A program made the translations under genes and the position numbers. 64,000 nucleotides of DNA, from positions 119,814 through 183,813 of the IMG/VR virus record IMGVR_UViG_3300042691_025398; one strand, given 5' to 3'. How positions within the stretch are numbered: the first letter of the stretch is position 1; each line of letters begins with the position of its first letter. Under the pieces are notes generated by a model, which was given only the letters and a program-made list of their open reading frames with translations, did no database searches and had not been told where the DNA came from. The stretch comes from a virus (lineage: Duplodnaviria; Heunggongvirae; Uroviricota; Caudoviricetes). Below are positions 26,395-43,768 of this stretch, in pieces.

Positions 26395-26480
26395 AGCTCA
26401 CTTTGGAACCTAGAGGTAGCGGTTCTAGTTCACAGGCAGCAGCCGCCCGCGACCACAGCTTACGGTCCTAAGGTGGTCAT
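26395..26480 (-). ncRNA. unassigned three-hairpin structured element
   Basis: GACCAC-CTTA-GGACCG-TAAG-CT-GTGGTC, then GCGGGCGG-CTG-CTGCCTGT, then GAACTAGA-ACCGCTACC-TCTAGGTTC, followed by AAAGTGAGC-TTTT. GC-rich island in an AT-rich gap. Confidence 0.45.
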
Positions 26481-27373
26481 ATAAACTTGTTGATTCCGGA
26501 TTCTTCATCCATGTAGTCTGGATTGGCTTGTTCTTGTTGACCACGACGTCGTGAACAATACATTTCACAAGCCAGTGATGCCTCTTCTAAACTTTCAAAA
26601 GCAGTTGGCAAAACTTTTTCACTTACACTGACTCTAAATCCATCATCTTCGTTGCCGTGTATTCTAATTTCTTTGCCATCTGGGGTGTTTATGGTTTTCA
26701 ATGGCAAAAATTTTTCTATGTCTGGTTTTTGTAATTCTTGCTTGGCTTTTCTAATTAATGAACGATCGCGGCCAACCAGTTCGTCTTCAACACTGCGGAG
26801 ATAATCATGTAGTCCTCGACGGATCTTGCCCAGTACGTCTTCAGCTGCAATCATTTGCTGCACACTGTCTGTTTCTTTTACAGCATCTGTTTTTTTGGGA
26901 TATCCATGTTTGATATCTAGACTGTATCCACTAAGGCCTTTTTTATCCAGCACATCGCTGATAAACTGTTCTGCCTCTTTGGCATTGGTAAAACGATCAC
27001 CTAGATCATATTTGCGTGTTTCGCCATCAATGGTTACATAGGCAATGGTTATGGGCTTGACCACAGGTTCTGCTGCATATGAAGGGCTGCCTAAAGCTGT
27101 GGCGGCTGCTAGAGTAGCAGCACCAAGTGCTGACTTGATGCCTTCTTCAATGTCTGGATCTGCACTTTCACTTGCACCCACCGCATATCCTCGCATGGGG
27201 TGATCAGGATCGGTCTTGGCACCTAGCACTGATATTTTTGCAGGCTTGAACAGTGCAGGCAATTGAGGCACAGACTTCTGTTGTTTGTTTAGATCTTTTG
27301 ATAACTCAGCTGAGGTCACACTGCCTTCTGCAATGGTATCAAGTCGGGCTAGTATTTGATAAAAGTCGTTCAT
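26477..27373 (-). CDS. modular hypothetical protein (probable virion cargo)
   Basis: 298 aa; hydrophobic-x-E junctions (IAE, IEE, VKE); internal signal-like helix. Confidence 0.75.
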   Translation of the reverse strand: MNDFYQILARLDTIAEGSVTSAELSKDLNKQQKSVPQLPALFKPAKISVLGAKTDPDHPMRGYAVGASESADPDIEEGIKSALGAATLAAATALGSPSYAAEPVVKPITIAYVTIDGETRKYDLGDRFTNAKEAEQFISDVLDKKGLSGYSLDIKHGYPKKTDAVKETDSVQQMIAAEDVLGKIRRGLHDYLRSVEDELVGRDRSLIRKAKQELQKPDIEKFLPLKTINTPDGKEIRIHGNEDDGFRVSVSEKVLPTAFESLEEASLACEMYCSRRRGQQEQANPDYMDEESGINKFI

Positions 27374-27813
27374 GCTCGCGCCTCTTTTAAAAATGAGCGC
27401 AGCATCCAGCGATGTTTGCCCATGGCGTCAATTCTACCAGCAAGGAAATCCATGATACCCTGTTGATTTTCAGCTTCAGCATCTTGAAACGCCATGTTTA
27501 GAATCTCAAGCATTTTATCAGAATCTTGATATAATTCTTCAATCATGAGTCTAGCTCTTGGCACCTTGATCTGACCTTGGATTAGGGAAAGTTCTTGAAA
27601 TCGCTCAAAACTACCTGGTGCGTAGTCATCAAGGACTCTAATGAATTCTGCTGTGCGGTCTATGCTATTTCCATATACTTCTTCGTAGATTTCTCCAAAG
27701 AATTCATGCAACTGGGCAAAATCAGGCCCTTCTACATTCCAATGAAAAAACTGTGCTTTGATCACAAAAGCATAACTTGAGGCAAGAACTTTCTTTAAAG
27801 ATTCAGCTAGCAT
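27370..27813 (-). CDS. dps: Dps-family ferritin-like DNA protection protein
   Basis: FFHWNVEGPDFAQLHEFFGEIY, DRTAE and KHRWML. Start moved to MLAES at 27813. Confidence 0.85.
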   Translation of the reverse strand: MLAESLKKVLASSYAFVIKAQFFHWNVEGPDFAQLHEFFGEIYEEVYGNSIDRTAEFIRVLDDYAPGSFERFQELSLIQGQIKVPRARLMIEELYQDSDKMLEILNMAFQDAEAENQQGIMDFLAGRIDAMGKHRWMLRSFLKEARA

Positions 27814-27982
27814 TTTTATTCCGTTTAATTTGTTTAGGTTTTGGCCTATTTGCATATTTATAAGACGCAGGCGGCCTGCTCATTCTTGATACCATGGGCA
27901 TGTGCCCAAGTCCTGTGCTCACAGTTGCAATGTTGGCACTGCTGGTAGACATGTCTTCTTTGATAAATTCCCAAGCTCTCAT
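27803..27982 (-). CDS. 59-aa MRAxEF-motif protein (below ORF-track cutoff)
   Basis: Hand translation MRAWEFIKEDMSTSSANIATVSTGLGHMPMVSRMSRPPASYKYANRPKPKQIKRNKNAS*. Confidence 0.65.
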   Translation of the reverse strand: MRAWEFIKEDMSTSSANIATVSTGLGHMPMVSRMSRPPASYKYANRPKPKQIKRNKNAS

Positions 27983-27984
27983 GA

Positions 27985-28269
27985 TTAGCCTATCAAGATT
28001 ATTCCGTTGCTTTTGACTCTAACTGGTCCATATAAAGCCTGAATAGATATCACATCCAATGAAGCCAAACAAGGTTGTACCAGTTCAAATTTAATTTGGT
28101 ACTTGCCCGGTACAGCTTGTATTTGGAAAATTTCTTCTATTAGATTGTCAGTCCAAATCCAGGTTCTTTCAGTAAACAGCTCGTTGTTTACCCACGCACG
28201 ATAGGCAGGATACAGTCCCTCCCAGTGGCAGTTCAGCTTACAGGCAATTTTAACGATGTCATTGGACAT
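27985..28269 (-). CDS. hypothetical protein
   Basis: 94-aa ORF with TAAATA 4 nt upstream. Confidence 0.65.
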   Translation of the reverse strand: MSNDIVKIACKLNCHWEGLYPAYRAWVNNELFTERTWIWTDNLIEEIFQIQAVPGKYQIKFELVQPCLASLDVISIQALYGPVRVKSNGIILIG

Positions 28270-30131
28270 GCTATATTTAGCTCAAAATCGGCTGACATAT
28301 CCAAGGGTGTAAGAGCAATTGTGGCCTTGCCAAATCCTTCTTTTCTACGCAGAACCACAAAACTCACAAACTCTTCGATGTCCGCCCAAGATTCTGTTTG
28401 TCCTGATGAAAACTCGCATGAAACTGGAGCCTGTGTTATCACGGGTTCTTGATCTATGATCCAATCAATCAAATTGCTGGCCAGTGTGACTGTGGTCACT
28501 GGTGGCCCATATGGATCAATTACCCAGTATCGCTGTAGCTCAATCACTTCTTGTTGATTTTGATCCTCACAAATGCTGCTAAACCATGTGGCCAGCTTGT
28601 CAAGGTATAGATCGCGATGCCTATACATGTCTTTCACTGTGTCCCATAAAGCATAATATTCAATACTGCGACCATGTTGATAAAAATCATTCACTGTGTT
28701 TCTAAAAGCTTCTAGCTTTGGCTTAAAGAAATTGTCTGAGTTCAACCACTGTTCAAAGTGTTCATAGATGTGTTTGTAAGTGAATCCGCGCTTGCGCAGA
28801 TAACGAGCATATAACTCTGTCCATCCGTGATGATGAAACGTGATAATCAGCCAAGAAAACACCATGGCATCTACCATGTCTGTGGCTGTCATGGTACTGG
28901 TTTCTGTGGCCACATGCTGTTGTTCATTAATGCCACTACGAGCGCAGGTCCAATAATCTGATATCACAGTGCTTTTGATTTTATACTGTTCAACCTGTTT
29001 GGTCATTTCAGCGTTGCGCAGCAGTTCAATCGGAGCCACAAACACACATCCATGTTGACCCATTTCTATTAGATCCAGATGTCCTTGTCGCCAACTGTCC
29101 AGTGTTTCTTCTGGCATGCCTAGTATGAGTTCAGTATAGAAAGGAATGTGTTTGCGATTGCATGCATGAAACAATGAACTTTGATCGTTCAGTTTCATGT
29201 TCTTGCGTTTGATGGCTTCAAGCGTGGGTTCATGCATGCTTTGCACACTGAGAGTTAGCCCACGATTGAGACCATGACGAGTGAGTTCTTCTGCAATGTC
29301 TAGTATCACTTCATTGGAGTTTTTGTACCATGTGCAACTGATCTGTTGAGGGTATCCGTATTTTTGTTTGGTTTGAATAAAACATTCTGCAATGGCTCGA
29401 TCTCTATCTGGAAACACACCAAAGTTAGCATCGGCCAAGGATATGAATTCAATTTTGTTTTTACCAGCCCACTCTATTTCAGCAAAAACTTTTTCCAAGG
29501 GAAACTTCTTTATCTTGGCATAGGTAAGACTACCCCAGTCACAAAAGGTGCAGGGAAAAGGACAGCCTCTATTGGTTTCAATAGTCATGGCATAGGCGAA
29601 ACCAGGATCTGCAACCAAATGATCAAACATGCCCATTAGATAGGGACTGGGTACATCAAGGTCTTCTACTCTATGTGCAGCATAGTCTCTTCGCACACGC
29701 TGATCCAGTATGTCATTTAGCACTGTACGAAATGCAATTTCACCTTCATAGCGAATTGACACATCAATCCAGGGATTGTCCTTGCGCCATTGTCTTAGGG
29801 GTTCTTCTTCATTGGGAACATTAGGACCGCCGAAAATAATCACGCAGTTAGGGAATCGATCTTTAACAGCTTGACTCAGCGCAAGATTATAATTTTCATT
29901 CCAAATGTAATTGCTGAATCCACAAACAGCAGGATTTTCAAGACTGTTGACCACTTGGTCCACTGGATCACGCAAGATGCCAAGACCAGCCAAATGGAAA
30001 TTTTCCGCAAGTCTTGGATCAGTCATGGCGTAACTCCAAATGCAGCCCACTGTGTAGGGTAGCCATACCGAAGTGACATTGCCATGCCCCATTTCAAAAT
30101 TTGGGGCGTAGAGATACACGTTTTGTTTCAT
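28233..30131 (-). CDS. cobalamin-binding radical SAM protein
   Basis: N-terminal B12-binding Rossmann pattern (VCGFSNYIWN, IIFGGPNV), ETNRGCPFPCTFC, LADANF and ELILGMPEET. Confidence 0.85.
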   Translation of the reverse strand: MKQNVYLYAPNFEMGHGNVTSVWLPYTVGCIWSYAMTDPRLAENFHLAGLGILRDPVDQVVNSLENPAVCGFSNYIWNENYNLALSQAVKDRFPNCVIIFGGPNVPNEEEPLRQWRKDNPWIDVSIRYEGEIAFRTVLNDILDQRVRRDYAAHRVEDLDVPSPYLMGMFDHLVADPGFAYAMTIETNRGCPFPCTFCDWGSLTYAKIKKFPLEKVFAEIEWAGKNKIEFISLADANFGVFPDRDRAIAECFIQTKQKYGYPQQISCTWYKNSNEVILDIAEELTRHGLNRGLTLSVQSMHEPTLEAIKRKNMKLNDQSSLFHACNRKHIPFYTELILGMPEETLDSWRQGHLDLIEMGQHGCVFVAPIELLRNAEMTKQVEQYKIKSTVISDYWTCARSGINEQQHVATETSTMTATDMVDAMVFSWLIITFHHHGWTELYARYLRKRGFTYKHIYEHFEQWLNSDNFFKPKLEAFRNTVNDFYQHGRSIEYYALWDTVKDMYRHRDLYLDKLATWFSSICEDQNQQEVIELQRYWVIDPYGPPVTTVTLASNLIDWIIDQEPVITQAPVSCEFSSGQTESWADIEEFVSFVVLRRKEGFGKATIALTPLDMSADFELNIACPMTSLKLPVS

Positions 30132-30139
30132 CCGGTTAT

Positions 30140-30588: not shown

Positions 30589-30986
30589 TATTTCAATTGT
30601 CCTGTTTTCATAACAGCCGCGGCGTTTTTCATATTGGATGCTGGTGGTACCGCACCACCAGCTGCTGGATTGCCAGCACCGCGTGAGATACTGATGGGTC
30701 CAATCTTGGTTGTTGGTGGCTGTGTACGACCGGTCCAACTGCCGTCTGGTTTGGTTGAAGTTACATTAACATTTGAGGGTATGGAAGCGGAAGCAGCTCG
30801 TTGAGTTTTTATCTCTTGATCCATTGCATCAAGATTTTTAGTAAGGCTATTAGAGTAATCTTGAATATCCTGTGCAATGTTTTTGGCCATGCTGCCTGTG
30901 CTCATGGCTCCGGCTTTCACAGCATCTTGGTAGGGCATTTCAGATTCTGTTTTGGTTTTGGATTTTATAAATTCTTTTGCCTTCAT
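30588..30986 (-). CDS. MKAxEF-motif hypothetical protein
   Basis: True start MKAKEFIK at 30986 (ATGA overlap). Confidence 0.7.
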   Translation of the reverse strand: MKAKEFIKSKTKTESEMPYQDAVKAGAMSTGSMAKNIAQDIQDYSNSLTKNLDAMDQEIKTQRAASASIPSNVNVTSTKPDGSWTGRTQPPTTKIGPISISRGAGNPAAGGAVPPASNMKNAAAVMKTGQLK

Positions 30987-32314
30987 TTTTTTCGTCCTGA
31001 TTTCATGTTTGCACACCAGTGTGCCATGCGCTGGCGTTCACCCGAGCTGTTGCTGGCTATGCTTCTCAATTTACTTATTGACTGTTTGCAATTAACTCCA
31101 ACACGCTTGGCTAATCCCTTGCGTCCGGGCTTTTTACCATCGGCAAAGTTTTCTGTTACCCCATCATCGGGCTTTTTGAATTGCATTTTACGACCACTAC
31201 GCCATTGGTCGTACATCACTGCTGGATCTCGTTCCCACACAGTTTCGCCAGTGCCATCTTTAATTGTAAAGATTTGATTGTCTGCACTATCTGGATCTGT
31301 GTCTATTATAATCTCAACTTCTTGAATAGCCGGGCCCAAGGAGGGAAATTCTCCAATTAGATGTGAGCGATATGGATCGCCCACGTATAATTTAAATGGA
31401 CCAAATCCGTCTTCACCAGGATCAAATTCATAAAGTCTAACCACTGAAGTTACTCCGTGAGCATGGGGCTCACCGGGAATCACAGTGTTGAGCATGAGCG
31501 CACCACTGTCCAGCATCAACATGCCAAGTGATATATCAGTCTTTGGATCAAACACCCAGACTTTTTGGCCTGTTTCAACTTTTTTCAGTTTCTTTGACAC
31601 CTTAGACAAACGACGCAGTGTTTTTTCAACTGCGCTAATCTCAATGTTGCGACTTGCGGCTTGATCATAAAGATGTTTATGAATAGGTATTACTAGACTA
31701 CCAACAGTAGCAGTGCCAAGAATTTTTGGACTATACAACGTGCCAACAGTGGCTTCATCAACAGTGTCGCTGTTGATGTTGTAGATCTTTTTCAACTGTT
31801 CTATAGCTGAAGACGCATTGTTCCAACGGTACAGCACAGCTATACCGCCGTCGGCCTGCCAGGCATTTACATATTTTTTAAAATCATCAACCAACACATT
31901 TGCTTTGCCATTGGCAGTGGCATAGCGTTGTTTTTCATTAGTAAAAATAGCAGAGTCTGCGGTGCCTGGATGATGACGATTCAACCATGTGAGTTTGCCA
32001 CGTATGCTGGCGTCTTCATTGCCGCGTAATGGAGCACTTAGAATTGTGTACTGAATATTGTTGTCGCGTAGAAAAGCGATCAGTTGTTGTGCTCCTGGTA
32101 AAACTGGCAAGGTGGCAAAAAACTTTTCCACAAATTCTGGACCACGACTATTGAGGTCAGCGATACTGGCTTCACGAGCAGCACGATCACCAATTTCTTT
32201 ATACTGCTCTTTGCCAAACAGTCTAGCCCAGGCTGTGAAAAAATCAGCTTGTACTCCATCCATGTCTAGATATAGATGCGGACGATGGCCTTGCGTGAAT
32301 TCTGATGCTCTCAT
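30983..32314 (-). CDS. HAD 5'(3')-nucleotidase (NT5C-like) fused to C-terminal modules
   Basis: LYLDMDGVQADF (DxD), ILSAP, GKLTWL and VLVDD; MRASEF start; modules after VDE, LYE and VTE. Confidence 0.85.
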   Translation of the reverse strand: MRASEFTQGHRPHLYLDMDGVQADFFTAWARLFGKEQYKEIGDRAAREASIADLNSRGPEFVEKFFATLPVLPGAQQLIAFLRDNNIQYTILSAPLRGNEDASIRGKLTWLNRHHPGTADSAIFTNEKQRYATANGKANVLVDDFKKYVNAWQADGGIAVLYRWNNASSAIEQLKKIYNINSDTVDEATVGTLYSPKILGTATVGSLVIPIHKHLYDQAASRNIEISAVEKTLRRLSKVSKKLKKVETGQKVWVFDPKTDISLGMLMLDSGALMLNTVIPGEPHAHGVTSVVRLYEFDPGEDGFGPFKLYVGDPYRSHLIGEFPSLGPAIQEVEIIIDTDPDSADNQIFTIKDGTGETVWERDPAVMYDQWRSGRKMQFKKPDDGVTENFADGKKPGRKGLAKRVGVNCKQSISKLRSIASNSSGERQRMAHWCANMKSGRKK

Positions 32315-32931
32315 TATCTTGTCCTTGTAGCAGAGAACACCTTCATGTAATCCTTGAAGTTTTCGTGTCTATCTGCCAATCCATTTAACTTGGGGTTGAT
32401 TCGCTGTGTTACCGCACGAGTGTCGTTGAAATTGCTCACCGCAGGCCTCACACGACTGGCCCAGTACCACACAGCTATTTTTGCTGCTATGTCAGGTCTA
32501 CTGGCCAGTTCGGGTCGGTCTTCCAGTGGTAGTCCTAGGGCTTGTCCGGCACGGCGATAATTATCTCTACCAGTTATTTGTATAAAGCCACGGCCTTTGT
32601 ATCGCACACCATCACCTTTATAAACATTGCCTAGATCTCTGCGTCCTTCGTATTCTTTGCCACTAGCATATTCGTGCATGCGTTTGAATCCAGCTGATTC
32701 GTGAAAACACTGTGCGAGAAACTGTGCCAACTCAACTCCACGGATACCGGCTTGTTTTGCAGTGCGATGTAACAGCATTTCAGCATCAAAGTTTGCACTC
32801 AGAGCAGGCGGACTAACTTCAGGCGTGCGGGCTTGTGCACTGGGAACCCCGGCAGCAGACATAGCACCAGCACCCAAAGCTCCTAGGAATCCTCTACGAT
32901 CAATTTCCGTGATGAATTCAAGGGCTCTCAT
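32314..32931 (-). CDS. GH19 glycoside hydrolase (lysozyme/chitinase) with MRAxEF leader and Tat-like signal
   Basis: FLAQCFHESAGF and YKGRGFIQITG..NY; N-terminus MRALEFITE-IDRRGFLGALGAGAMSAAGVPSAQA. Confidence 0.88.
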   Translation of the reverse strand: MRALEFITEIDRRGFLGALGAGAMSAAGVPSAQARTPEVSPPALSANFDAEMLLHRTAKQAGIRGVELAQFLAQCFHESAGFKRMHEYASGKEYEGRRDLGNVYKGDGVRYKGRGFIQITGRDNYRRAGQALGLPLEDRPELASRPDIAAKIAVWYWASRVRPAVSNFNDTRAVTQRINPKLNGLADRHENFKDYMKVFSATRTR

Positions 32932-34052
32932 TTTAACTCCGTGTCACTTTTAGTAAAAGTATCAACAATCTTATAATGTCGAGGTCCTACCAATTCAAAA
33001 TCATACTTGTCATCGTCGTCAATTTTGAAAGGGCGAAGAAAATGTCTTGTCTTACGCTTAATTGCTAACGCACCGTTAGGAGTAAATCCTGTTTGCTCGA
33101 GGTCTGCACGATAAACTCTGCCCATTGCACCAATTACTGCTAGGTCTACTTGATAACCTTGCTTTAATAATCTATCAGTAATAGTAACAATCTGGCTGAT
33201 CCCTTCACCATCATCACCATCACGGTCGTCTAGGAATTCGTTTAATTGTGCATTGAAAATTAACTCTGCAAGTTTAAGTGCATTGTCTCTAGTTTTTGGG
33301 ATCGCTACACCGGCTTTACGACCTCTGCCAAATCCTTGTTCATAATCAAGCAAATGAATATTAACAGTAGGGTATTCACCTCGCTTACCTACTAGACTAT
33401 AAAGTATTGCACCGTTTCGAGTTTTGTCTTTTGGTTCAAACTTTACGCTAACTTGCTCTGGTCGTTCGCCGTCTTTTCTAGTATATCCACGACCTAAATA
33501 TTGCTCTATAATATCAGCAAATTCAGTTAGTGGGAAAGACTCAGGATCTTCTTTACCGCCATCACCAAAGTCGGGAGTTGGTGCAAATTCATTTAAGGAA
33601 TCTTCCGCTACACCCGGATTCGTGCTGGTCAGTTCATAACTTACGCCATGTCCTGATTCCCAACGATCAACACGATATCCTAACGCACTGGCATAACGCT
33701 GTACTAATCTATCATATAATTTTGCACGACTGTCTGACTGTTGCGATTCGTCTTTTTTGGCTGCTTCAAATGATAACGACCTTGGATGATACTTTTTAAT
33801 AAATTCAGCTATTGCTGCTAACACAGTGGCAAATATTCTTTGTGCGTCACCTTCGCCAGTGACTGATTGACTGTGTCCACGCCAAAACTCTACAGAATAC
33901 TCATCTTCCCCTTCCTCATTGAACATAATAGAAAGATATGCCCCATCAGGAAGTAAAACTAGTGCATCGTGGTCATTGCCGTGATCACCTTTTTCCCAAC
34001 GTAGGTTATAGGGTTGATCAAACGCTTCAATTATAAATTCTTTAGCTCTCAA
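32928..34052 (-). CDS. modular MRAxEF-motif protein
   Basis: TTG start overlapping the upstream TGA gives (M)RAKEFIIE; internal module headers LNEFAP and LNEFLD. Confidence 0.75.
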   Translation of the reverse strand: MRAKEFIIEAFDQPYNLRWEKGDHGNDHDALVLLPDGAYLSIMFNEEGEDEYSVEFWRGHSQSVTGEGDAQRIFATVLAAIAEFIKKYHPRSLSFEAAKKDESQQSDSRAKLYDRLVQRYASALGYRVDRWESGHGVSYELTSTNPGVAEDSLNEFAPTPDFGDGGKEDPESFPLTEFADIIEQYLGRGYTRKDGERPEQVSVKFEPKDKTRNGAILYSLVGKRGEYPTVNIHLLDYEQGFGRGRKAGVAIPKTRDNALKLAELIFNAQLNEFLDDRDGDDGEGISQIVTITDRLLKQGYQVDLAVIGAMGRVYRADLEQTGFTPNGALAIKRKTRHFLRPFKIDDDDKYDFELVGPRHYKIVDTFTKSDTELK

Positions 34053-34717
34053 TCTAGCAACCCTCCTAACCATAACACAAAAGGATCATTTACAACGATA
34101 GTACCGTCGGCTCGTCGCATGTAATTTCCTTTATGTAAATCAATTGAGTATCCTTGCTTACGTCCAAAACGTTTGACATCATACACTGTGTTTAGTAAAT
34201 TCGCTGCTGCTCGCTTACCACCTAAATGCTTTACAGCGTCTTTTAACTCATACCACGTACCACCGCCTTCATCGTTGAACGTATGCATAGCATACTGAGC
34301 TATTGTTTGAAGTTCTTTTTTGTAATCTGTTTTACGTTTCTTTATAACTTCATCAACATGAGCAACTAGATATCCTATTTCGTCAGGTAACTCTTGCAGT
34401 GGTTCCATCCTTGCTTGAATATAATTTTGACCTTGAAATCTAAAACTTTCAAATCCTGAAAATCTTGGCAGGTGCGGATTTTTTTTATTTTTATTGCAAT
34501 AGTTGATCCAGTTAATAAACATACGTTGATCAGGGCTGAAATCTTTTTGACCTTTACGATAACCAAACACAATCAACACCTGTCCTGTGCCTGGCTCCAG
34601 GTAGGCTTGTTTGTCAATACCACCACCTAGATATTTGTATCCTTTTTGTGACAAGGCTTGGCTTATGCCAACATTAATGACACCGGCCATTTCTGTGGTG
34701 AATTCGGAGGCTCTCAT
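34049..34717 (-). CDS. protein-kinase-like (PKL fold) protein with MRAxEF leader
   Basis: Gly loop YLGGGIDKQAY, MEPL, catalytic DLHKGNYM and VVNDPF. Confidence 0.7.
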   Translation of the reverse strand: MRASEFTTEMAGVINVGISQALSQKGYKYLGGGIDKQAYLEPGTGQVLIVFGYRKGQKDFSPDQRMFINWINYCNKNKKNPHLPRFSGFESFRFQGQNYIQARMEPLQELPDEIGYLVAHVDEVIKKRKTDYKKELQTIAQYAMHTFNDEGGGTWYELKDAVKHLGGKRAAANLLNTVYDVKRFGRKQGYSIDLHKGNYMRRADGTIVVNDPFVLWLGGLLD

Positions 34718-37700
34718 CTCGCTGGTACTACCATAAATTCACCGCTGCCCAGTAGGCCTTGTTGTCTTAACCAATTGGCGGCGTATACATTTGCCTCACC
34801 TTGGTTACTACGATGTACAAAACTGTACACTTCACGATCATTCGGGTCTAATATCAACCAACGAGTATTACCTGGTGGTAGGCTTTCTGTACCACGTGCT
34901 TGATCTTGTTGTCCAGCTAATCTTTGATTTATGCGATCCTGTGTAGATCCTGGAATCGGCGTTCCGTCAGTGGGCCTGCCTTCTATAGGGCGAACGGCAT
35001 ATCTCGTGCGCCAACTGCTGTCACCAGGTTGATATTCTCCTGTTCCCTGTACCCAATCGCTAAGTTTTGCTATTGCTTCTTGGGCGGTGTTGGCGATAAA
35101 TCTAAACACCACTCGGTCCGATCCACCGCTACGATCTATGATCTCATAGTTGGCACCGCTAGTTGGTTCGCCTCCTGCCCGACCTACTGGATTGGCTTCT
35201 ATAGATCTAACACCTAATCCTCTTTCTGCCAATCCAGCACGCACACGATCCATGGCAGCATTGGCATTAGGAGCTCTAGTGTTAATATCATGTGGATGTC
35301 CGTAGTCATCTGTCCATTGAACATTATAAAGTTGTTCTGTTTGTGCTGCTGGTGCAGATGTATTAGCAGGCGAACCATCTATTTTATAGGCAGTGTTGGT
35401 ATTAAGATCAATGATTCTAATATCTTCAGGGGTAAGGTTATATCTGGGAGTACCAATGTATATGTTGGTCATTTCAACCGTGTATGCAAAAGTTCGTGTT
35501 GCGCCGCCTAATATTACTTGTCCATCTCTATTATCAATCACTTGATATATGCTGGTATGCGGTGCTCGGGCAAATCCACCACCACCTGTGGATCTTGGCC
35601 GCATCTGTGGACGTACATATATAGGATCATCAAATCCTGTTTGCTCCTGCCATCTTTGGGCGTATCTTTCTGCATCCTGAATAGCATTACCTATGCCACT
35701 TATGGTGTGTACAACTTCGTCAGTGGATCTACTTACAACTTCCCATGTACCAGTAAACTCTTGGTCACGGCTCGAAGTTTGTGATTGTGTACCGGTATTG
35801 TATCTAGCAGGCCTTCCGTCAATGTCATAGACCTGACCATTGTCGGTGTTTATGATACGGATATCTGCACGACGTATATTGTTGCTCAGAGCTATCTCTG
35901 CTGCTGCTTGGGAGGCATAAATGAATGTTCCACCAAGACCTTGTAACATATTGCGAGTAGCTTGATTCATGATGGCCCACGAACCCGGTGTATTACTTGT
36001 CGCTGCTGGATAATCTAGAGGAGTAGCTGTAGAGTCTGAATCAGACGGACCTTGGTCAGGCGAAAGTTTCTTCAATTTACGCTGTTGTTGTGCTTGCTTA
36101 ACGAAACTCTTTAATGCTGACTGTGGTAGTTCTCCAGCTGCATAACGTGCAAAGAATTGAATAGTGTCATCACTTTCGCCTAGAGATAGAGTCTTGTACA
36201 ACTTCTTCATGTACTCTTGACGATATAATTCGGGTTTCATGGCAATGTCTAGTGCCACTGTAAAACGCAGTAGAGTGTTTTTAATCTTATCTGGATCAGC
36301 TGCATATTCCCCTAGCCAATCACCCCCAGGGCTACGAAACTCAATGTATCCATCTTTGGTGTTGATACTGGTGTATTTGTTTGTGGTGCCGGTGTGTACA
36401 ATCTTTGATGCCATGGCACTGAGATTGCCTTGCATCTGTTGCAGCATGGTCTTGACTTTGTCAGGATTGGTGCGGGCGATCTTTTTAATGTTTTCCATGG
36501 CACTGGAACAGTAGCTATTACCAGCACGACCAAATTGATCTAACACATACTCATCGCCCAAGAATATGGCCAACTTAACATAGTCAAGTTTGCTGAGTTC
36601 AAAACCAGGAACACTCACATTCATGTGCAAACCAGTGGTGCTGTTGGTGTAACAGTCGTTACGAGCAGCCCATTTCACCACCTTGTCTAGATCAGATAAC
36701 ATCTCATCTAAGGGCAGTGGCGGGCTAATAAATTCCAATCCGCCGTCTTCGGGATTGTCAGGATCACTAAGACTGCTGTCTGTTTCTACACGATAGTTAT
36801 CGGTTTGACTACCAGCACCACTGTGGTAACCACCTGATTTAACTCTGCGACCAATGGCTGATTGGAAATCACTGGCAACGTCGTTGATGTCTATACTACC
36901 ACCGCCGCTGTCAGAATATAACACATAGGGCCAATCAAGACTAAATTGATTGCCGAAGTCCAACATGGTATCGATGTCGTTATCGCTTAAGAAATCTTCC
37001 CATTGATCTTCGCTTTGATATTCTTCTTGGAACTGTTCCATGGCACGGTCATGTTCTGGACCGCCAGTTTCGTTCGCCACAGTAAGAATACGCTCCTGGT
37101 AGTCTTCGTCACTTTCACCGTCGTCCTGTGGAAGTTCGTTTTTGAGATAATCCAAGAACACGCTATAATTATCGTCTGACCACTCCTGGAAGTTTTCGTC
37201 TTTCCATGCCCAGTAATCTTCATCTAGTCTGTCAAGGGCACGTTGAATTGTGCTGGTAGTGTTACCGTAATCGCCGCCTCTAAAGAAGTCCATGACTTCT
37301 CTCTGCCAGCCACGACCAGTTGGAAAACTTTCGTCCATGTCATAGTCTGGCTCAACCTCTCCATAGTCTTCGTCGGCTTCGGCAGCATTGGGCACATACA
37401 TTTCGAATTCCATGCCGGCTATGGCACCAGTTTTAGCGGCCATCTGTCGGAGATTACTGGGACTCATGTTTACTTCGTTTAGTTCTTCTTCGTCTTTAAT
37501 TGATTCTAGCAAACGATTGAGTTTTTTCATGAGCAGCTGAGGATGTCCTTGACTGTCCACGTCTAGATTTAATTTGTTTGCTTCTTGACCTATTTGTCCT
37601 GGTTTGATATCCACAGTGAGAGCCATTTTGAATCTTGGATCTTTGGCCTGCCGTTTGGTTGGGATATATCCTGAGCTTTCTCTTACATTAGGCTCGCCTC

Positions 37701-39501
37701 TTAATCGGTCTCTCAATCTATTGATTAATTCTTCCTTGGCGCCACCTAGGCCCATGTCTTTAACTGACTGTGCTGTGCGTCCTACGGTCTGTACTCCACG
37801 TAGCACATCAGTGGTAGGAGAATCAGTAGTGGCACAACCTGGTGTGCCTGCTATGCAAGCCGCAGCAGCCGCGGTGCCCAGTGCTGACTTCCAATCTTCA
37901 TCTACATTGTAAGTGGGATCAACCTTTTGGCGAGGAATGTTTTTAGGTTGTTTAGGATCAACAGGATCAATGTCAGTGGTTGATAGGCCAGTTTTTTCTA
38001 AATCCTTGATGTATTCATGTTCGGTGTCTTCGTCGCCAAAACTGATAATGGCACTGGGTGGGCCTTTGCCAAAATCATGTTTGCCAAGGCCTTTCATGTT
38101 GCTAATGTGCTGTCCCAGTTTGTACCAGTCGTACACATCACTCACGTCCACTTTAACAGTGCCTGCTGGCATTGTGGGTTTGGATTCAGGTCCTGGTGGA
38201 GTTGCATTGGGATCATAGTCTTCGCCCAGATCCGGATCAAACATGTGAGGATTCTGTTTGTTCCAATGCCGCATGATTTCACCAGCCTTGGCATTGGCTT
38301 CGTTTTCCCATTTGCTTCCGGTTTTGCCTGCATCAGGAGGCAACGGACTGGTCTGATCTTGAGCAGCATGCACTAGTTCATGTGCAAGTGTTCGCAGGAT
38401 ATCAATGATATGTCGATCCACCACACTGATGTGCAGAGTCTTGGTCGTGTGATCATATTGCCCAAAGCTGTTGGAATTCTTGCTCCAGCTGGAATCGGAA
38501 TGTGTGCGTATTTTTGGCAAGCGTTTCATGCCCAACTGTCGAGCACAGAACTTGGCGAAATCAGCTATGGTACTGCGAATGTCCGTTTTGTTGTCTTCAC
38601 TAGTGAACATTCTAGTGGTTGGACTTACGCCATCCCAACTGCTGCCCACGTCTTCGCGAACACTTTCACCGCCACCGCCATCTCCACCACCGCTGTCGCT
38701 GCCAGACTCTCCACTGCCGCCGTAATATCCAAAACCAGGATACCAATAACCGCCATAGGCATAACGGCGACGTGATTTTTTACGCTTGCGTTCTACCAAG
38801 CTGAGTTCATCATCCTTGGCCTGCTGTCGGGCTGTTTGTAATTTTTCTATTACGCCGTTAACTCTCAGCAGTTTGAACACAAGATTTTCTGTGCTGAATT
38901 CACCCTTCTGCTCCAGGCCTGCTTTGCGCATGTCTTTGATTTTTTGCCAAAGACGATCCATGGTCTCGCGTTCTCGAGAAGCAATGGCCTGCTCAATTCT
39001 GGCTTCTAGATCTTCGGCTTTGTGCTGTACAGATTGGTCGTCAATGTCAGCACGTTTGCGACGCGGCACTGACAGCCATTTATTTTGTAGAATACTGTAG
39101 ATGCCTTGACTCACATGTGTATCTCCAGCGGGCTGCACATACAGCTCTACATCTGAGCCTCGCACACGAAGATCATGCTGGTCGTTGTATTGGTACTTTT
39201 TGGCGTTGAACAGTTCACGATACACTTCATCTGACAGTTCAGGAATGTCCACCACAAGGTGTAGATCTATGTCGCTGTTGGGAGTGTAATTGAAAGCAGC
39301 ATTGCTGCCTGATATAGTGATGTCTTTGACTTCTAGATTTTTAACACCCAGAAATTCTCTAAAGTCATCAGCAATGCGCAACAGAGCGTCGCGCACTTCG
39401 GGGCGCAGATTTTCATCTTTGCCCCAAAGTCCAGGATTAAGCCGATCGTGAAATCTAACAGCGTCGGCTAAATTATAGTTTTCCAGTTCATCGATATGCA
39501 T
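34714..39501 (-). CDS. 1595-aa multidomain protein: Pol-beta-like nucleotidyltransferase, zincin HExxH module, putative amidoligase (COOH-NH2 ligase type 2), C-terminal repeats
   Basis: GSNA...SDIDLHL; LAHELVHAAQ; GMEFEM...VETDSSL...LEFISPP...GLHMNVS...YIEFRSPG. Confidence 0.8.
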   Translation of the reverse strand: MHIDELENYNLADAVRFHDRLNPGLWGKDENLRPEVRDALLRIADDFREFLGVKNLEVKDITISGSNAAFNYTPNSDIDLHLVVDIPELSDEVYRELFNAKKYQYNDQHDLRVRGSDVELYVQPAGDTHVSQGIYSILQNKWLSVPRRKRADIDDQSVQHKAEDLEARIEQAIASRERETMDRLWQKIKDMRKAGLEQKGEFSTENLVFKLLRVNGVIEKLQTARQQAKDDELSLVERKRKKSRRRYAYGGYWYPGFGYYGGSGESGSDSGGGDGGGGESVREDVGSSWDGVSPTTRMFTSEDNKTDIRSTIADFAKFCARQLGMKRLPKIRTHSDSSWSKNSNSFGQYDHTTKTLHISVVDRHIIDILRTLAHELVHAAQDQTSPLPPDAGKTGSKWENEANAKAGEIMRHWNKQNPHMFDPDLGEDYDPNATPPGPESKPTMPAGTVKVDVSDVYDWYKLGQHISNMKGLGKHDFGKGPPSAIISFGDEDTEHEYIKDLEKTGLSTTDIDPVDPKQPKNIPRQKVDPTYNVDEDWKSALGTAAAAACIAGTPGCATTDSPTTDVLRGVQTVGRTAQSVKDMGLGGAKEELINRLRDRLRGEPNVRESSGYIPTKRQAKDPRFKMALTVDIKPGQIGQEANKLNLDVDSQGHPQLLMKKLNRLLESIKDEEELNEVNMSPSNLRQMAAKTGAIAGMEFEMYVPNAAEADEDYGEVEPDYDMDESFPTGRGWQREVMDFFRGGDYGNTTSTIQRALDRLDEDYWAWKDENFQEWSDDNYSVFLDYLKNELPQDDGESDEDYQERILTVANETGGPEHDRAMEQFQEEYQSEDQWEDFLSDNDIDTMLDFGNQFSLDWPYVLYSDSGGGSIDINDVASDFQSAIGRRVKSGGYHSGAGSQTDNYRVETDSSLSDPDNPEDGGLEFISPPLPLDEMLSDLDKVVKWAARNDCYTNSTTGLHMNVSVPGFELSKLDYVKLAIFLGDEYVLDQFGRAGNSYCSSAMENIKKIARTNPDKVKTMLQQMQGNLSAMASKIVHTGTTNKYTSINTKDGYIEFRSPGGDWLGEYAADPDKIKNTLLRFTVALDIAMKPELYRQEYMKKLYKTLSLGESDDTIQFFARYAAGELPQSALKSFVKQAQQQRKLKKLSPDQGPSDSDSTATPLDYPAATSNTPGSWAIMNQATRNMLQGLGGTFIYASQAAAEIALSNNIRRADIRIINTDNGQVYDIDGRPARYNTGTQSQTSSRDQEFTGTWEVVSRSTDEVVHTISGIGNAIQDAERYAQRWQEQTGFDDPIYVRPQMRPRSTGGGGFARAPHTSIYQVIDNRDGQVILGGATRTFAYTVEMTNIYIGTPRYNLTPEDIRIIDLNTNTAYKIDGSPANTSAPAAQTEQLYNVQWTDDYGHPHDINTRAPNANAAMDRVRAGLAERGLGVRSIEANPVGRAGGEPTSGANYEIIDRSGGSDRVVFRFIANTAQEAIAKLSDWVQGTGEYQPGDSSWRTRYAVRPIEGRPTDGTPIPGSTQDRINQRLAGQQDQARGTESLPPGNTRWLILDPNDREVYSFVHRSNQGEANVYAANWLRQQGLLGSGEFMVVPAR

Positions 39502-39519
39502 ATGAACTGTATTTATTGC

Positions 39520-40488
39520 TTAGGCAGCAGGCGCGGCTTCTAGTTGATTTTCACTGCTGCTTAATACTCTAGCCTTGACTGGTGCAGGCTCTGGGCCACT
39601 AACCACTGTTACTGGTGCAGGCTGAGAGAGATCGCTGTCGGGTGCAAGAGCTTTTCCATTGGCCTGTGCTACCTTGTGCAGTTCACGATACATGTTTTCC
39701 TGTGTGCCAAAATCAAAGGTGTGTGTGCCCACGTGACGCAGTAAAATGCGCTTGTCTACAAACACTTGACCACCTAGATCACGCCAGTTTTCACAGAAAG
39801 TCCAATCCTCGCTGTAGTAACGATTTTCACGCACAGCAGTATCAAAATAGGTTTTCATGTCCTTGTCAAGACTAGAGTCAAGACCAATGTCATTTGCAAA
39901 AGATTTCACAGCTGGATGTGCCTTGAGTTTTTCAAATACCTCACGCTTGATCAACATGAAGCCGGTGCCGGTCTTGGTGACTTCTAACAAACCGTTTGGA
40001 TCATTGTCCGGCGCTCCAGGAATGCCGTTAACGCACCATTTTACAGGAATAGTCTTCATGGGATACAGACCTCCCACCACGTCCTTGTCATGATTTAACA
40101 GTGCCAGCAGGTGCCAAGGTTCCCAACCAATGTCAGCATCAATAAACATCAAATGAGTGCTTTCAGGGTTGCTGAGGAATTTGGCCACTAGAGTGTTGCG
40201 AGCACGGCTGATCAAGCTTTCGTTGGTCATGGTTTCCACGGTCCAGTCAATGCCCAATTGACGGCAAGCGTTGCCCCATTTTACAAAACTCATGAAAGTT
40301 TGTTCAGTCAGCATGCCACCATAGCAGGGCATGCAGATGTGTACTCTTGTGGTGCGTAGATAATCTACGTTGACTTGTATTTGTTGTGTGTTGTTATCTG
40401 CTGCAGGAGCTTCTGCAGGAACAGGAGCAGGAGTAGTAACTTCGGCTTCAACCACATCATTACTCTCATACATTTTTTCGTAAACCAT
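39520..40488 (-). CDS. GT-A fold glycosyltransferase
   Basis: ICMPCYGG, SLISRARN, MFIDADIGW (DxD) and YSEDWTFC; Pro/Ala-rich tails. Confidence 0.8.
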   Translation of the reverse strand: MVYEKMYESNDVVEAEVTTPAPVPAEAPAADNNTQQIQVNVDYLRTTRVHICMPCYGGMLTEQTFMSFVKWGNACRQLGIDWTVETMTNESLISRARNTLVAKFLSNPESTHLMFIDADIGWEPWHLLALLNHDKDVVGGLYPMKTIPVKWCVNGIPGAPDNDPNGLLEVTKTGTGFMLIKREVFEKLKAHPAVKSFANDIGLDSSLDKDMKTYFDTAVRENRYYSEDWTFCENWRDLGGQVFVDKRILLRHVGTHTFDFGTQENMYRELHKVAQANGKALAPDSDLSQPAPVTVVSGPEPAPVKARVLSSSENQLEAAPAA

Positions 40489-40544
40489 AAATTCCTCTCA
40501 GGTAAAAAGTTAAGATATTTAACCGTGTACTAGAGGACTGTAAA

Positions 40545-42125
40545 TTATTTGCTCAGGTATTTGGCTCGCAGCTTTTGAGCAACTTCTGCCAGTTTACGAT
40601 CATACTGTCGCATGGCTCTGGATGTACGGTCTTGACGTTCTCTTGAGTCAGCATAAGGATCATTAGTCGTACCACCAAATCCGGATCCTTGAATACCACC
40701 TTGTTGCACCACTCGAGTTACTGTTTTGCCTTTTTTCGCGTAATGGGATCTAAAATCAAATTCATCACTTCTTACATTGATGGTATCAGTGCTACCATCA
40801 TCAAAGGTCACCTGGTATGTGTAATATTCTCCTGGCATCAACCCTTCTTGCGTTTTGACTTTGTGCTTGTTTGGTCCTTGATCGGATGCATGCTTGGCAA
40901 TCAAGGAATTGATCATGGCTGTTTTATGTTCAGGTGCAGCAGTGCTTTGTGCAATTTTCTTGATTAAGTCTAAAACATTAGGAGGCAGCCCACCAGCTTC
41001 ATCTAGTTCTCTACGATAATTTGCATCATAATCATCAATGCCCCGGGGAGTGGCTCGAGGTATGCTATGAGGTCTACTAAAATCTCTATTAGATGGAGTA
41101 GCTGACCCAGAACCGCCTATAGGACCACGGCCACGACCGCGTTTTCGTTCCGGAGTGCCATATACGCCTTGTTTGACACCAGCACCGCCTCTTGGCTTTG
41201 GTGCGTTTTTAGACTTGATATAAGCATCTAACTCATCAAAGCCTTCCGCTACACTAGACTCTGGTAATTGACCTTCGGGGCCTGTCTTACGATATGGACT
41301 AGATGCTTTCATAGCATCCATGCGACTCTTATTCAAGGTGCCTTTCCGTCCTGTACGATCAGTTTTATATAGATCATCTGGCCCTGCAACAGTTCTCCCA
41401 CCAAGTTTATCAAAATTTTGTGCTTTGCCGGTGTTTGGTCTAATCTGCACTGTGATATTCTTCAACACTTTCATAGCATCACCAATGGAATTGAAAGTGT
41501 CGTTTATATCACCACCGTGATACCCGTCTCGGTCTTCAAACTTTATTTTCACACGACCAGTCGTTACATCGTAATAGACTGTTCCTTGAGCATAGTAACC
41601 GCCTTCACGGTCATCAAACTCCCAAACTCTTATGTTGGGATTACCTGATTCTTCTTCGTACCAGCCGTGTAGATTTTCAATGGCTTGTGCAAAATCACCT
41701 TTGCCTTCCGCCACACCTTGCGTACCAAACCAACCTTGATTGGTTCGTAAATTAAATTCACCAATGACATCACCGTCCCAGCTTTGTGCCACCAAACGAA
41801 CTCTATCCTTCTGTGGGTGTACAGTTCCGCCTTGAGCAGAAACTTGATCACGCCACTGATCATAATCACTAAATCTATTGTTGCCTAGTTGCTGTTCATC
41901 AAAGTACTCACGAGGCTGATTTAATTGCATGCGCATTTTTAATTTGCCGTTTACATAGACCTCACCAATCTTGCCTTTTTGATAACTAACCAGTTTAGAT
42001 GCCTTGTTTCTAGCATGATCAATGTCGTTATAAGGACCAGGAACCACTTGTCCATCCAGCCTTACTTCAATGTTTTCATCACTTTCTTTTAACAGTGATC
42101 TTGTGTTAAAATCTTGGTATCTCAT
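40545..42125 (-). CDS. modular polyprotein-like hypothetical protein
   Basis: 526 aa of short unrelated segments separated by LKE, FDE, VAE, LPE, LDE and LAE. Confidence 0.8.
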   Translation of the reverse strand: MRYQDFNTRSLLKESDENIEVRLDGQVVPGPYNDIDHARNKASKLVSYQKGKIGEVYVNGKLKMRMQLNQPREYFDEQQLGNNRFSDYDQWRDQVSAQGGTVHPQKDRVRLVAQSWDGDVIGEFNLRTNQGWFGTQGVAEGKGDFAQAIENLHGWYEEESGNPNIRVWEFDDREGGYYAQGTVYYDVTTGRVKIKFEDRDGYHGGDINDTFNSIGDAMKVLKNITVQIRPNTGKAQNFDKLGGRTVAGPDDLYKTDRTGRKGTLNKSRMDAMKASSPYRKTGPEGQLPESSVAEGFDELDAYIKSKNAPKPRGGAGVKQGVYGTPERKRGRGRGPIGGSGSATPSNRDFSRPHSIPRATPRGIDDYDANYRRELDEAGGLPPNVLDLIKKIAQSTAAPEHKTAMINSLIAKHASDQGPNKHKVKTQEGLMPGEYYTYQVTFDDGSTDTINVRSDEFDFRSHYAKKGKTVTRVVQQGGIQGSGFGGTTNDPYADSRERQDRTSRAMRQYDRKLAEVAQKLRAKYLSK

Positions 42126-42127
42126 GG

Positions 42128-43753
42128 TTAGACTTTCTTGTTTTTGACTTCTGCCAGTAACTGTTTTAGTTTGTGCAGAGATTCTTGTACGCTTTCGTTC
42201 TTTTTACGGCCTTGGCAGTGTGCACGTTGACTAAAGCCTTTGGGATTGGCACAGTTAATAGAGCGCTTGTATTGCTCGCTCCATTTTTCATCCAGTTGAT
42301 CTGAATCCACGCTTTCTTTTTTGTTACCCCAATTCTTGGCACCTTTTTTGCGACACTGTACCAATGCGCCCGATGCATAGGCAGATGGCCAAACCTTGTA
42401 ACGACTTTTTACCTTGTAGTAGCAAGCATCTTGCTTTTCATTCATGAGACTGATTTCATACAGGGCACCACCGCATTCTGGACATTGTTGGTGTGTTTCT
42501 TCAACGCTTTCCTTGGGCACACAGTTAGGCACCATGCGGTCGCCTTTTTTCTTCATGCCCACCTGTTTGTGAGTGTCCCAGCAGCGTTCATCCAGCTGAG
42601 CTTCGTCTGTTTTCTTTTTGGTGTTAACGTTGATGGCTTTACCACTGCGTTCAGGATTGGGATCTTCTCTGCGCTTTCTAGCTGCTGCACTTGCACGACC
42701 TTTTTTGCCCAATGCCTGCGCCTTGCTCTGTGGCAGGCATTTTGGTTTGCCTTCTGAATCGTCGCCTCTAGCACAGTCGCCGCGGATTTTACCATCAGGA
42801 CCAAATCGCACCCATTTTTCTTTGAACCATTTGCGTAGATCTTCTTCTAGGTCGCGTTCTTCAAGATAGTCAGCTGTGATATCCATTTCTTTGCCACGTG
42901 CCACAGGTCTACGTCCTTGACGTTCACGGAATTTTTCCAAGTCTGCCATGGCCTGAATCATGGACTTTAAAACGCCACGATCGTATATCACTTGATACAG
43001 CGCACGATACTGATTGGTCTCAACCAAACGACTCAGGTCTGCAATTTTTCTTGCGATTTCTTGATGCAGACTCTGCACAGAATATGTGCCCATGCCTCCT
43101 GCGGGACGCAACTGAATTCCTGACTCAGGATCATTTATCAGCACAGTTTCATTCATGATCTCGTTTTCATCAACTTTGTTCAATCTCAAATCAAAAATCT
43201 TGCGCAGGTTGCCGTCTGGCTGTCCATAAAGGTCTGCTAGTATTTGATCACGGCCTGCGTCATTGCTCTTGCTGTATAGGTCACGTATTTGACTGGCGCT
43301 GTCCGCATTCACGCCCTGCACCTTGAAGTCCACACGCGGAGTCAACAGTGCATAACCATGCTGTTTCATGGGACGCAGACCTTTACCTCCCTCGGGGAAG
43401 GGCTGCAGATAACTGGGTGAACCATCACGCTTGGGTTTGAAACTGATACGCTCTGCATCTTTGTCACTGAGCGCAAACACCAGCACAGTGTTTTCAGGAT
43501 CAAAGTCTTTGGTGATTTCCTGCGCTTGATAGGGATTGCGAACCTGTACCACATGACTAGCTGGTATTCCCAGTTGAGTCATCATCAGCTGTTTGTCACC
43601 AAAACTGAACGGGCTGGTTCCGGGCTCTTGTTTGTCTGACGTGGCTACAAACACATTGTCTTCACCAAATCGCTTGGTTAACCATTGATAACTGGCAAGG
43701 TGCCCACGGTGGAACGGATGAAATCGGCCTGGATAGATCACTAGTGTTTGCAT
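42128..43753 (-). CDS. HxGH nucleotidyltransferase fused to basic Cys-containing modules
   Basis: IYPGRFHPFHRGH and SASQIR; then KWFKEKWV, CWDTHK...VPNCVP, DACYYKVK...WPSAYASG and KWS..YKRSINC modules. ATG at 43753. Confidence 0.8.
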   Translation of the reverse strand: MQTLVIYPGRFHPFHRGHLASYQWLTKRFGEDNVFVATSDKQEPGTSPFSFGDKQLMMTQLGIPASHVVQVRNPYQAQEITKDFDPENTVLVFALSDKDAERISFKPKRDGSPSYLQPFPEGGKGLRPMKQHGYALLTPRVDFKVQGVNADSASQIRDLYSKSNDAGRDQILADLYGQPDGNLRKIFDLRLNKVDENEIMNETVLINDPESGIQLRPAGGMGTYSVQSLHQEIARKIADLSRLVETNQYRALYQVIYDRGVLKSMIQAMADLEKFRERQGRRPVARGKEMDITADYLEERDLEEDLRKWFKEKWVRFGPDGKIRGDCARGDDSEGKPKCLPQSKAQALGKKGRASAAARKRREDPNPERSGKAINVNTKKKTDEAQLDERCWDTHKQVGMKKKGDRMVPNCVPKESVEETHQQCPECGGALYEISLMNEKQDACYYKVKSRYKVWPSAYASGALVQCRKKGAKNWGNKKESVDSDQLDEKWSEQYKRSINCANPKGFSQRAHCQGRKKNESVQESLHKLKQLLAEVKNKKV

Positions 43754-43768
43754 GATCAAATATTTATG

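Follow-up and report, generated by a model that had tools for sequence, protein, structure and literature searches.

The stretch of DNA analysed here (the window, 64,000 nucleotides) comprises bases 119814-183813 of the 192-kb linear IMG/VR record IMGVR_UViG_3300042691_025398, which derives from an uncultured jumbo T4-related myovirus and is 55% complete by CheckV estimate. Six of its open reading frames (ORFs 26477, 30983, 32928, 34714, 40545 and 42128), all on the minus strand, encode strings of modules, and module borders set independently from 55 related loci coincide with hydrophobic-x-Glu sites (φ-x-E), here called joints, except in the C-terminal modules of ORF 34714. Judged from sequence, the prohead protease of the phage probably cuts at these joints. 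The region as a whole is best explained, in a reading that we favour with some reserve, as belonging to a cargo locus of this phage.

Module borders and hydrophobic-x-Glu joints

An earlier note on this DNA had described the six ORFs as strings of self-contained modules bordered by hydrophobic-x-Glu triplets. The ORFs lie where the note had placed them and the modular description is borne out: the same modules stand alone elsewhere. The proposed position of the borders held for all six ORFs when compared with the borders from the related loci, and failed for the C-terminal modules of ORF 34714 (residues ~1131-1595). The relatives comprise 55 IMG/VR loci (L002-L056; 1.13 Mb), which were collected with the 1595-aa protein of ORF 34714.

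Each ORF bearing the N-terminal leader described below was aligned to every other ORF, and the position of the terminal Glu of the leader was extrapolated into the longer proteins. Of the 144 distinct internal junction contexts obtained from the 55 loci, 89 show [LIVMF]-x-E in precise register with that Glu (background 1.8%), and each of the other offsets from -6 to +6 accounts for 1-12 contexts. The P3 residue of the joints is Val, Leu, Ile or Met in 87/93 (V35/L26/I21/M5) and P1 is Glu; P2 and P4-P7 are variable, and P4 is not Phe. In the T4 capsid targeting sequence, MKTYQEFIAE (PMC8442874), targeting depends on residues 4 and 7, and processing by gp21 on residues 8 and 10 (PMC9026906). Because P3 and P1 are kept and P2 and P4-P7 are free, the internal joints retain the T4 processing determinants and not the targeting ones. 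The fit to T4 gp21 specificity claimed in the earlier note is thus sustained, with Val, Leu or Ile at P3 and Glu at P1 corresponding to T4 residues 8 and 10.

Site conservation is bimodal: in joints the hydrophobic residue and the Glu persist while the middle residue varies, whereas in-domain sites do not persist. The joints of ORF 34714 are kept in 33/33 (E237), 21/28 (E283), 15/20 (E608) and 23/26 (E676) of the homologues, and one joint between E283 and E608 is kept in 7/9. Likewise, E388 of ORF 30983 is kept in 8/9 homologues, E16 of ORF 26477 in 17/18, and E441 and E491 of ORF 42128 in 7/7 and 13/13, respectively. In-domain sites are rarely kept, as for E219 (1/42) and E1109 (0/22) of ORF 34714 and E247 of ORF 42128 (0/15). 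A test for depletion of φ-x-E inside the cargo proteins, taken as a sign of selection against internal cutting, showed none at the whole-protein level.

The N-terminal 680 residues of ORF 34714 consist of modules that are permuted, dropped or duplicated among 55 homologues. The borders of the high-scoring segment pairs with these homologues fall at residues 235-242, ~300, 421/427, 533-536, 601-609 and 657-673, and match 7/16 of the [LIVM]-x-E sites of the whole protein (E237, E283, E427, E535, E608, E666 and E676).

As the earlier note had anticipated, alignment with relatives (L002 and the cassettes of L066-L070) places module gain and loss exactly at the sites, the C-terminal part of ORF 34714 excepted. 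The L002 orthologue of ORF 42128 (76% identical) lacks residues 303-483, and its YLEE/ runs straight into KWS (the slash follows the joint Glu). The L002 orthologue of ORF 30983 lacks residues 303-385, the module between LYE296 and E388. Between GPEGQLPE/ and the downstream modules of ORF 40545, the set of cassettes is different in each of five close relatives (L066-L070), every cassette being delimited by GVAE/, GVTE/, DVAE/ or VDE/. The cassette of ORF 26477 (residues 78-167) is missing from most members of its family, and a 74% identical copy is found inside the ORF 40545 homologue of L068/L069.

The four strings quoted for ORF 42128 in the earlier note are all present: LEE-DLRKWFKEKW (E306), LDE-RCWDTH (E391), MNE-KQDACY (E441) and LDE-KWSEQY (E491). 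Three of these joints align with the leader ends of stand-alone genes in relatives, LEE/DLRKW with MRASEFISE/DLRKW, LDE/RCW with MRYREILE/ACW, and LDE/KWS with MRAQEFISE/KWS. The MAFFT alignments of shuffled ORF 42128 fragments (A1, A2) misplaced the KWS modules and were left out of folding. A comparable case is VTE388/NFADG of ORF 30983, which matches 66-aa genes of the form MRAxEFxxE/NFADG in seven relatives; φ-x-E/ precedes NFADG in twenty-odd other contexts, and the NFADG module has no match among cultured phages. In ORF 32928, all homologues of module 1 terminate in V-x-E (GVAE157), residues 163 onward (LNE162/FAP) match MRASDFLTE/FLDT of L071/L073, and residues 280 onward (LNE279/FLDDRD) match TQVNE/FLDDRD of L073.

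The strings LNEFAP and LNEFLD (ORF 32928) and LYEFDP (ORF 30983), which the earlier note took for internal echoes of the N-terminal EF motif, are present, and the echo itself was rejected as misaligned. In LNE/FAP, LNE/FLD and LYE/FDP the Glu occupies P1 of the joint and the following module opens with the Phe; the aligned relatives read MRASDFLTE/FLDT. Phe is outside the eight commonest residues following a joint.

One class of joint is also fixed as DNA. The word GTGTRGCGGAAG is common to three joints of the window, E157 of ORF 32928 and E140 and E294 of ORF 40545. Across the 55 loci, the coding strand carries 56 copies of GGTGTRGCGGAA (0.12 expected) and the other strand none; this is the most context-diverse 12-mer there, and the Ala codon GCG is used in ~72% of G-V-A-E motifs versus 7% overall. 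The 17-mer CAAGGTGTGGCGGAAGG matches at least 120 further IMG/VR stretches (L074-L193). Among the matches listed, 161/162 lie in open frames of at least 100 aa when read as Q-G-V-A-E-G, 157 different flanks are found, and the spacings within one ORF are multiples of three ranging from 150 to 870 nt. The conservation of the Q-G-V-A-E-G DNA exceeds peptide selection, and suggests that these joints are also sites of DNA exchange by recombination. Other joints, for example D-Y-φ-x-E, use free codons, and the peptide rule is therefore more general than the DNA rule. No published description of cargo polyproteins bounded by prohead-protease sites, or of a DNA-conserved joint, was found in the literature.

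Leader peptides, head genes and known systems

Seven ORFs of the window start with the leader M-[RK]-A-x-E-F. Their products, a GH19 muramidase and a kinase-like protein among them, are candidate capsid-targeted proteins. In the 55 loci the leader heads 245/1233 ORFs on the same strand and 0/335 on the opposite strand, with the consensus MRAQEFIxE; 88/180 distinct leaders have I/L/V at position 7 together with E at position 9, and 27 more have E at position 8. This leader resembles a version of the T4 capsid targeting sequence shortened by one residue, the core QEFIxE being common to both. Among the six ORFs, it is found in ORF 30983 (MRASEF) and ORF 32928 (MRAKEFIIE, from a probable TTG start), and ORFs 40545 (MRYQDF) and 26477 have leader-like N-termini only. 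The leader of ORF 30983 may stay attached to its protein, because it has no Glu at position 9. Other proteins of the loci (L002-L070) begin with a second type of leader, M-x-x-x-x-L-[FIL]-E, as in MNFRQLFE/, MILNDLFE/, MRIKNLIE/ and MRYREILE/.

The true start of ORF 32928 is probably TTG 34052 and not ATG 34073, from which its residues are numbered here; this start would give MRAKEFIIE/, and AGGAGG is located 9 nt upstream. The AlphaFold model of this protein is confident for residues 18-153, with a predicted local distance difference test (pLDDT) score below 50 for residues 1-17 and 154-180; it is informative for the first module only, as homologues were too few for the others. In the model, E16 and E157/E162 appear at the edges of the confident fold.

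The sequence D-Y-[ILVM]-x-E, with free codons, is common to two leaderless families, that of the cytidylyltransferase (DYLEE of ORF 42128, window 42857-42871) and that of ORF 26477 (DYMDE290). In L002-L056, D-Y-φ-x-E lies within 3 residues of the stop codon in 25/53 contexts and otherwise ahead of a KWS module; it may act as a C-terminal tag or else be a joint that is open-ended.

The record encodes a T4-type head module outside the window, including a major capsid protein (Gp23; PF07068, E = 3e-100) and a gp21-type prohead protease of 212 aa (PF03420, Peptidase_S77, 95.8 bits), in agreement with the earlier note, which had placed the protease gene outside the window. The protease gene adjoins an ORF for a coiled-coil, scaffold-like protein with 22 [LIV]-x-E sites versus 10.9 expected (z = 4), as expected for a core degraded by the protease. 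The head module further contains an acidic protein and then larger ORFs at the T4-type portal position, the portal being a candidate only. The capsid protein shares ~65% identity with its counterparts in four jumbo phages (PA5oct, CBB, Vibrio 2.275.O and Sinorhizobium Phosso), and related contigs are as long as 355 kb. A scan for the T4 late promoter TATAAATA gave one match, which is the chance level, and scans for sigma-70 promoters and terminators gave background levels.

The closest parallel is offered by IPI, IPII, IPIII and Alt of T4, in which highly diverse proteins likewise stand behind a short N-terminal leader (QEFIxE) ending in φ-x-E; the gp21/gp22/gp23-type head module and the hypervariability of the locus between relatives add to the likeness. 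The T4 internal proteins are, however, cut once beside the leader (PMC8442874), whereas a precursor here has up to six or more internal joints and would give rise to a number of unrelated products. The leader is also shorter by one residue, and the capsid belongs to the PA5oct/CBB lineage and not to Straboviridae.

The 'polyvalent' proteins described by Iyer, Burroughs, Anand, de Souza and Aravind in 2017 (PMC5512222) are similar in having many unrelated effector-type domains per polypeptide, predicted packaging in the head and extensive mosaicism; the HExxH modules found here may correspond to their zincin-like domains. Several effectors per polypeptide are indeed found here: NTP_transf_2, Amidoligase_2 and HELVH modules in ORF 34714 (Pfam for the first two; phrog_36119), NT5C and three further modules in ORF 30983 (Pfam NT5C; phrog_2643), and a cytidylyltransferase-like domain and four further modules in ORF 42128 (Pfam CTP_transf_like; phrog_727, the small modules being of phrog_727 type). 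In ORF 32928 a DUF6934-like module is recognised by Pfam/PHROGs. That study (PMC5512222) suggests processing by embedded zincins and describes neither prohead-protease sites at borders nor DNA-conserved joints; it mentions 'prohead' once and 'amidoligase' never.

The inner-body and ejection proteins that gp175/gp245 cut in phiKZ, 201phi2-1 and SPN3US resemble this system in that a gp21-related protease cuts many head proteins after Glu, some of them at multiple and redundant sites. The motif of this type is S/A/G-x-E or A-x-E, and its cleavage mostly removes propeptides (PMC5694885). By contrast, P3 of the joints is V/L/I/M in 87/93, mainly V/L/I, the pieces are distinct modules, and the capsid is of another lineage, closest to PA5oct, CBB and Vibrio 2.275.O.

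Proposed processing, module exchange and alternative explanations

We infer the following course of targeting, cleavage, release and delivery. The short leader M-R-A-x-E-F-φ-x-E would direct the precursors to the prohead scaffolding core, where the gp21-type prohead protease would cut after the Glu of φ-x-E, at the end of the leader and between modules. One precursor would thereby yield several independent products of 50-300 residues (enzymes, small basic Cys-containing peptides and proteins of no assigned type), which would remain inside the head and reach the host along with the DNA. The C-terminal part of ORF 34714 would remain one piece. The joints would be the exact points at which modules are gained, lost and transferred between genes, as the alignments partly show, and the Q-G-V-A-E-G joints, fixed as DNA, probably serve as short homology for in-frame recombination. 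The earlier proposal that one targeting signal loads many effectors finds agreement in the module families, which stand, as it predicted, behind either their own leader or an internal site; it is not supported for ORFs 34714 and 42128, which lack a canonical leader.

A broader proposal, which we advance tentatively and do not hold to be the likelier outcome, is that the joints are dual-purpose, acting as head-protease cut sites in the peptide and as in-frame recombination handles in the DNA (CAAGGTGTGGCGGAAGG and variants). The result would be an integron-like reshuffling of combinatorial payloads of injected mini-proteins in a large clade of uncultured jumbo phages. To load a whole string, a single leader, or perhaps a D-Y-φ-x-E tag at the C-terminus, would be enough. 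Short conserved sequences that mark exchange are familiar from the His-boxes of T-even tail-fibre genes and from the VENN motif bordering the toxin tips of CdiA. The promoter-early stem-loop (PeSL) cassettes of T-even phages (PMC2839356) are alike in that a short conserved sequence marks the exchange of variable modules, but PeSLs are intergenic, whereas the joint described here lies in-frame, has a length of 17-18 nt and is at the same time a candidate protease site, recombination being its presumed second role.

Several results weigh against cleavage of the joints by the prohead protease and against loading by the leader. Overall, [LIV]-x-E triplets are about as numerous as chance predicts (78 versus 65.5 expected in the cluster, and 15 versus 17.2 in the 1595-aa ORF), and therefore a listing of triplets at supposed borders is no evidence by itself. 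The binomial P of the register (~1e-115) is only indicative, because the junction contexts are not phylogenetically independent. Val leads at P3 of the joints, and T4 gp21 has Leu or Ile at P3, in contrast with these Val-dominated joints. The C-terminal 920 residues of ORF 34714 contain shuffled modules with no φ-x-E at their borders (~1131-1157, 1242-1248, 1301-1304, 1474 and 1532). ORFs 34714 (MHIDELENY; MNIHELDSY or MRLNEFESL in its relatives) and 42128 (MIMQTLVIYPGRFHPF) have no canonical leader, and the catalytic HxGH motif of ORF 42128 begins at residue 8. Finally, the leader pattern has 0-2 matches in each of the cultured phages PA5oct, Vibrio 2.275.O, Phosso, CBB and Ralstonia phage RsoM2USA, and because of this scarcity none of the five is a cultured model.

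Some of these observations agree with an alternative in which the proteins remain intact multidomain 'polyvalent' proteins and the border φ-x-E, with no proteolytic role, reflects a linker habit, a recombination scar or a leader relic. The C-terminal modules of ORF 34714 shuffle without sites, and a subset of joints is kept as DNA beyond the need of the peptide, in both codon usage (GCG in GVAE) and 12-mer excess. In addition, the L071 leader ASDFLTE aligns to AEDSLNE of ORF 32928, a stretch that points to a fusion scar and may be what is left of a leader. Most joints, however, are not GVAE and have free codons, and yet P3 and P1 are kept (D-Y-φ-x-E; spread P2); exactly the two T4 processing residues persist at the joints and the targeting residues are lost; and the leaders end in the same motif as the joints. 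We consider it unlikely that the proteins stay uncut.

Cutting of the joints by another protease, either an embedded HExxH zincin-like module or a host enzyme, with the prohead protease uninvolved, appears highly improbable. HELVH is found in ORF 34714 and HELTH in leader-bearing polyproteins of L071/L073, and autoprocessing by such domains was proposed by Iyer et al. in 2017 (PMC5512222). The motif of ORF 34714, HELVHAAQ at residue ~375, has homologous HELTH modules in L071/L073 and no Pfam peptidase match (E < 0.01). Most jointed polyproteins (ORFs 42128, 40545, 30983, 32928 and 26477) have no HExxH module, gp21-type proteases (T4, phiKZ, SPN3US) characteristically cut after Glu and depend on little else, and the leaders terminate in the same motif. 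A chance coincidence of borders with a common triplet, whose overall frequency does equal expectation, is refuted by the sharp peak at offset 0, by the bimodal site conservation and by the exact end points of the cassette insertions and deletions.

If the joints are cut, double-stranded DNA phages would have a polyprotein strategy, otherwise typical of RNA viruses, for loading and releasing a variable set of proteins that travel with the genome. For annotation, one long 'hypothetical protein' would then stand for many products, and the injected proteins of metagenomic jumbo phages could be predicted by a simple rule, leader plus φ-x-E joints; many of these proteins would likely be counter-defence or takeover factors. 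The locus would also offer a natural example of in-frame cassette exchange, and would extend the T4 capsid-targeting tool for protein delivery in engineering.

Feature coordinates and additional observations

The coordinates of the ORFs, joints and modules are collected in Table 1.

Table 1. Features of the module-string region and of the head genes. Positions refer to the window unless given with G000:C1; ranges and numbers within proteins are residues.
Feature	Position	Strand	Description
ORF 26477	26477..27373	minus	298 aa; conserved 16-aa N-terminus ending IAE16; C-terminus DYMDE290
26477 inserted cassette	27143-27145; 26873-26875	minus	78-167; flanked by IEE77 and VKE167, at the positions given
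Leader M-[RK]-A-x-E-F	starts 27982, 30370, 30986, 32314, 32931, 34052, 34717	minus	seven ORFs
ORF 30983	30983..32314	minus	443 aa; MRASEF leader fused directly to NT5C nucleotidase 1-187; last module NFADG 389-443
30983 joints		minus	E187 (VDE); E296 (LYE, 31427-31429); E388 (VTE, 31151-31153)
ORF 32928	32928..34052	minus	module 17-157 (AFDQPY family); GVAE157/DSLNE162/; module 163-279; LNE279/; module 280-381
ORF 34714	34714..39501	minus	1595 aa; nucleotidyltransferase 1-237; basic/Gly-rich 238-283; HELVH zincin-like 284-427; 428-535; 536-608; 609-676; amidoligase and about six ~55-aa repeats 677-1595
34714 conserved joints		minus	E237 (38791-38793); E283; E427; E535; E608; E676 (37474-37476)
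ORF 40545	40545..42125	minus	526 aa; N-terminus MRYQDF...LKE(14)
40545 joints		minus	E77 (FDE); E140 (GVAE, 41706-41708); E289/E294 (LPE/VAE, 41244-41246); E376 (LDE, 40998-41000)
ORF 42128	42128..43759	minus	543 aa; cytidylyltransferase-like domain 1-301; four small basic Cys-containing modules
42128 joints		minus	E301/E306 (42842-42844); E391 (42587-42589); E441 (42437-42439); E491 (42287-42289)
DNA word GTGTRGCGGAAG	33602-33613, 41243-41254, 41705-41716	minus	
Scaffold-like ORF	G000:C1:15146-16234		outside the window
Prohead protease gene	G000:C1:16248-16886		outside the window
Peptidase_S77 match	G000:C1:16386-16832		PF03420

A megablast search of the 1595-aa gene against cultured phages gave no match. 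Its product contains about six tandem repeats of ~55 aa ([YW]-x-φ-φ-D ... V-R-P; residues ~1157-1595, window 34714-36030) with no Glu sites between them, and small domains resembling these repeats also occur in ORFs 40545 and 26477.

Outgroup phages with modules related to those of the window lend support to the favoured reading. Small basic Cys-containing modules of the ORF 42128 type are strung together in the cyanomyovirus proteins PSSM2_123 of P-SSM2 (L058 1435-2250) and gp206 of S-SRM01 (L059 1495-3324), where they are preceded by Glu (FKE/KCW, IDE/KCW and VEE/GKKDACY) and where the genes adjoin gp15/gp16; no virion evidence was found in the literature on cyanophage T4-GC119. S-SRM01 gp206 begins directly with MGWSEKYKK. 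The AFDQPY module, module 1 of ORF 32928, has homologues in KVP40-like Vibrio phages, among them gp279 of Vibrio phage VH7D, which starts MIIFEHGETLIE/AFDRP (L194 3980-4861). An unannotated 542-aa ORF adjoining VH7D gp279 (L194 4894-6522) starts MIGFQQLNE/N. VH7D is a cultured T4-like phage and offers a test case for the joint rule.

Hydrophobic stretches resembling a signal peptide or lipobox directly follow some joints, as in VDE/DWKSALGTAAAAACIAGTPGC (ORF 34714 residues 536-558, window 37830-37896) and IEE/GIKSALGAATLAAATALGSPSYA (ORF 26477 residues 78-101, window 27070-27142); the pattern is repeated in L068/L069 as VDE/GLKSKIAGAALAAANLLGSPAAA. Paired φ-x-E sites 5 residues apart, such as GVAE/DSLNE/, QLPE/SSVAE/ and YLEE/RDLEE/, number 106 versus 52 in shuffles (L002-L056 and the window ORFs, uncorrected for relatedness), and pairs 7 or 13 residues apart are likewise in excess.

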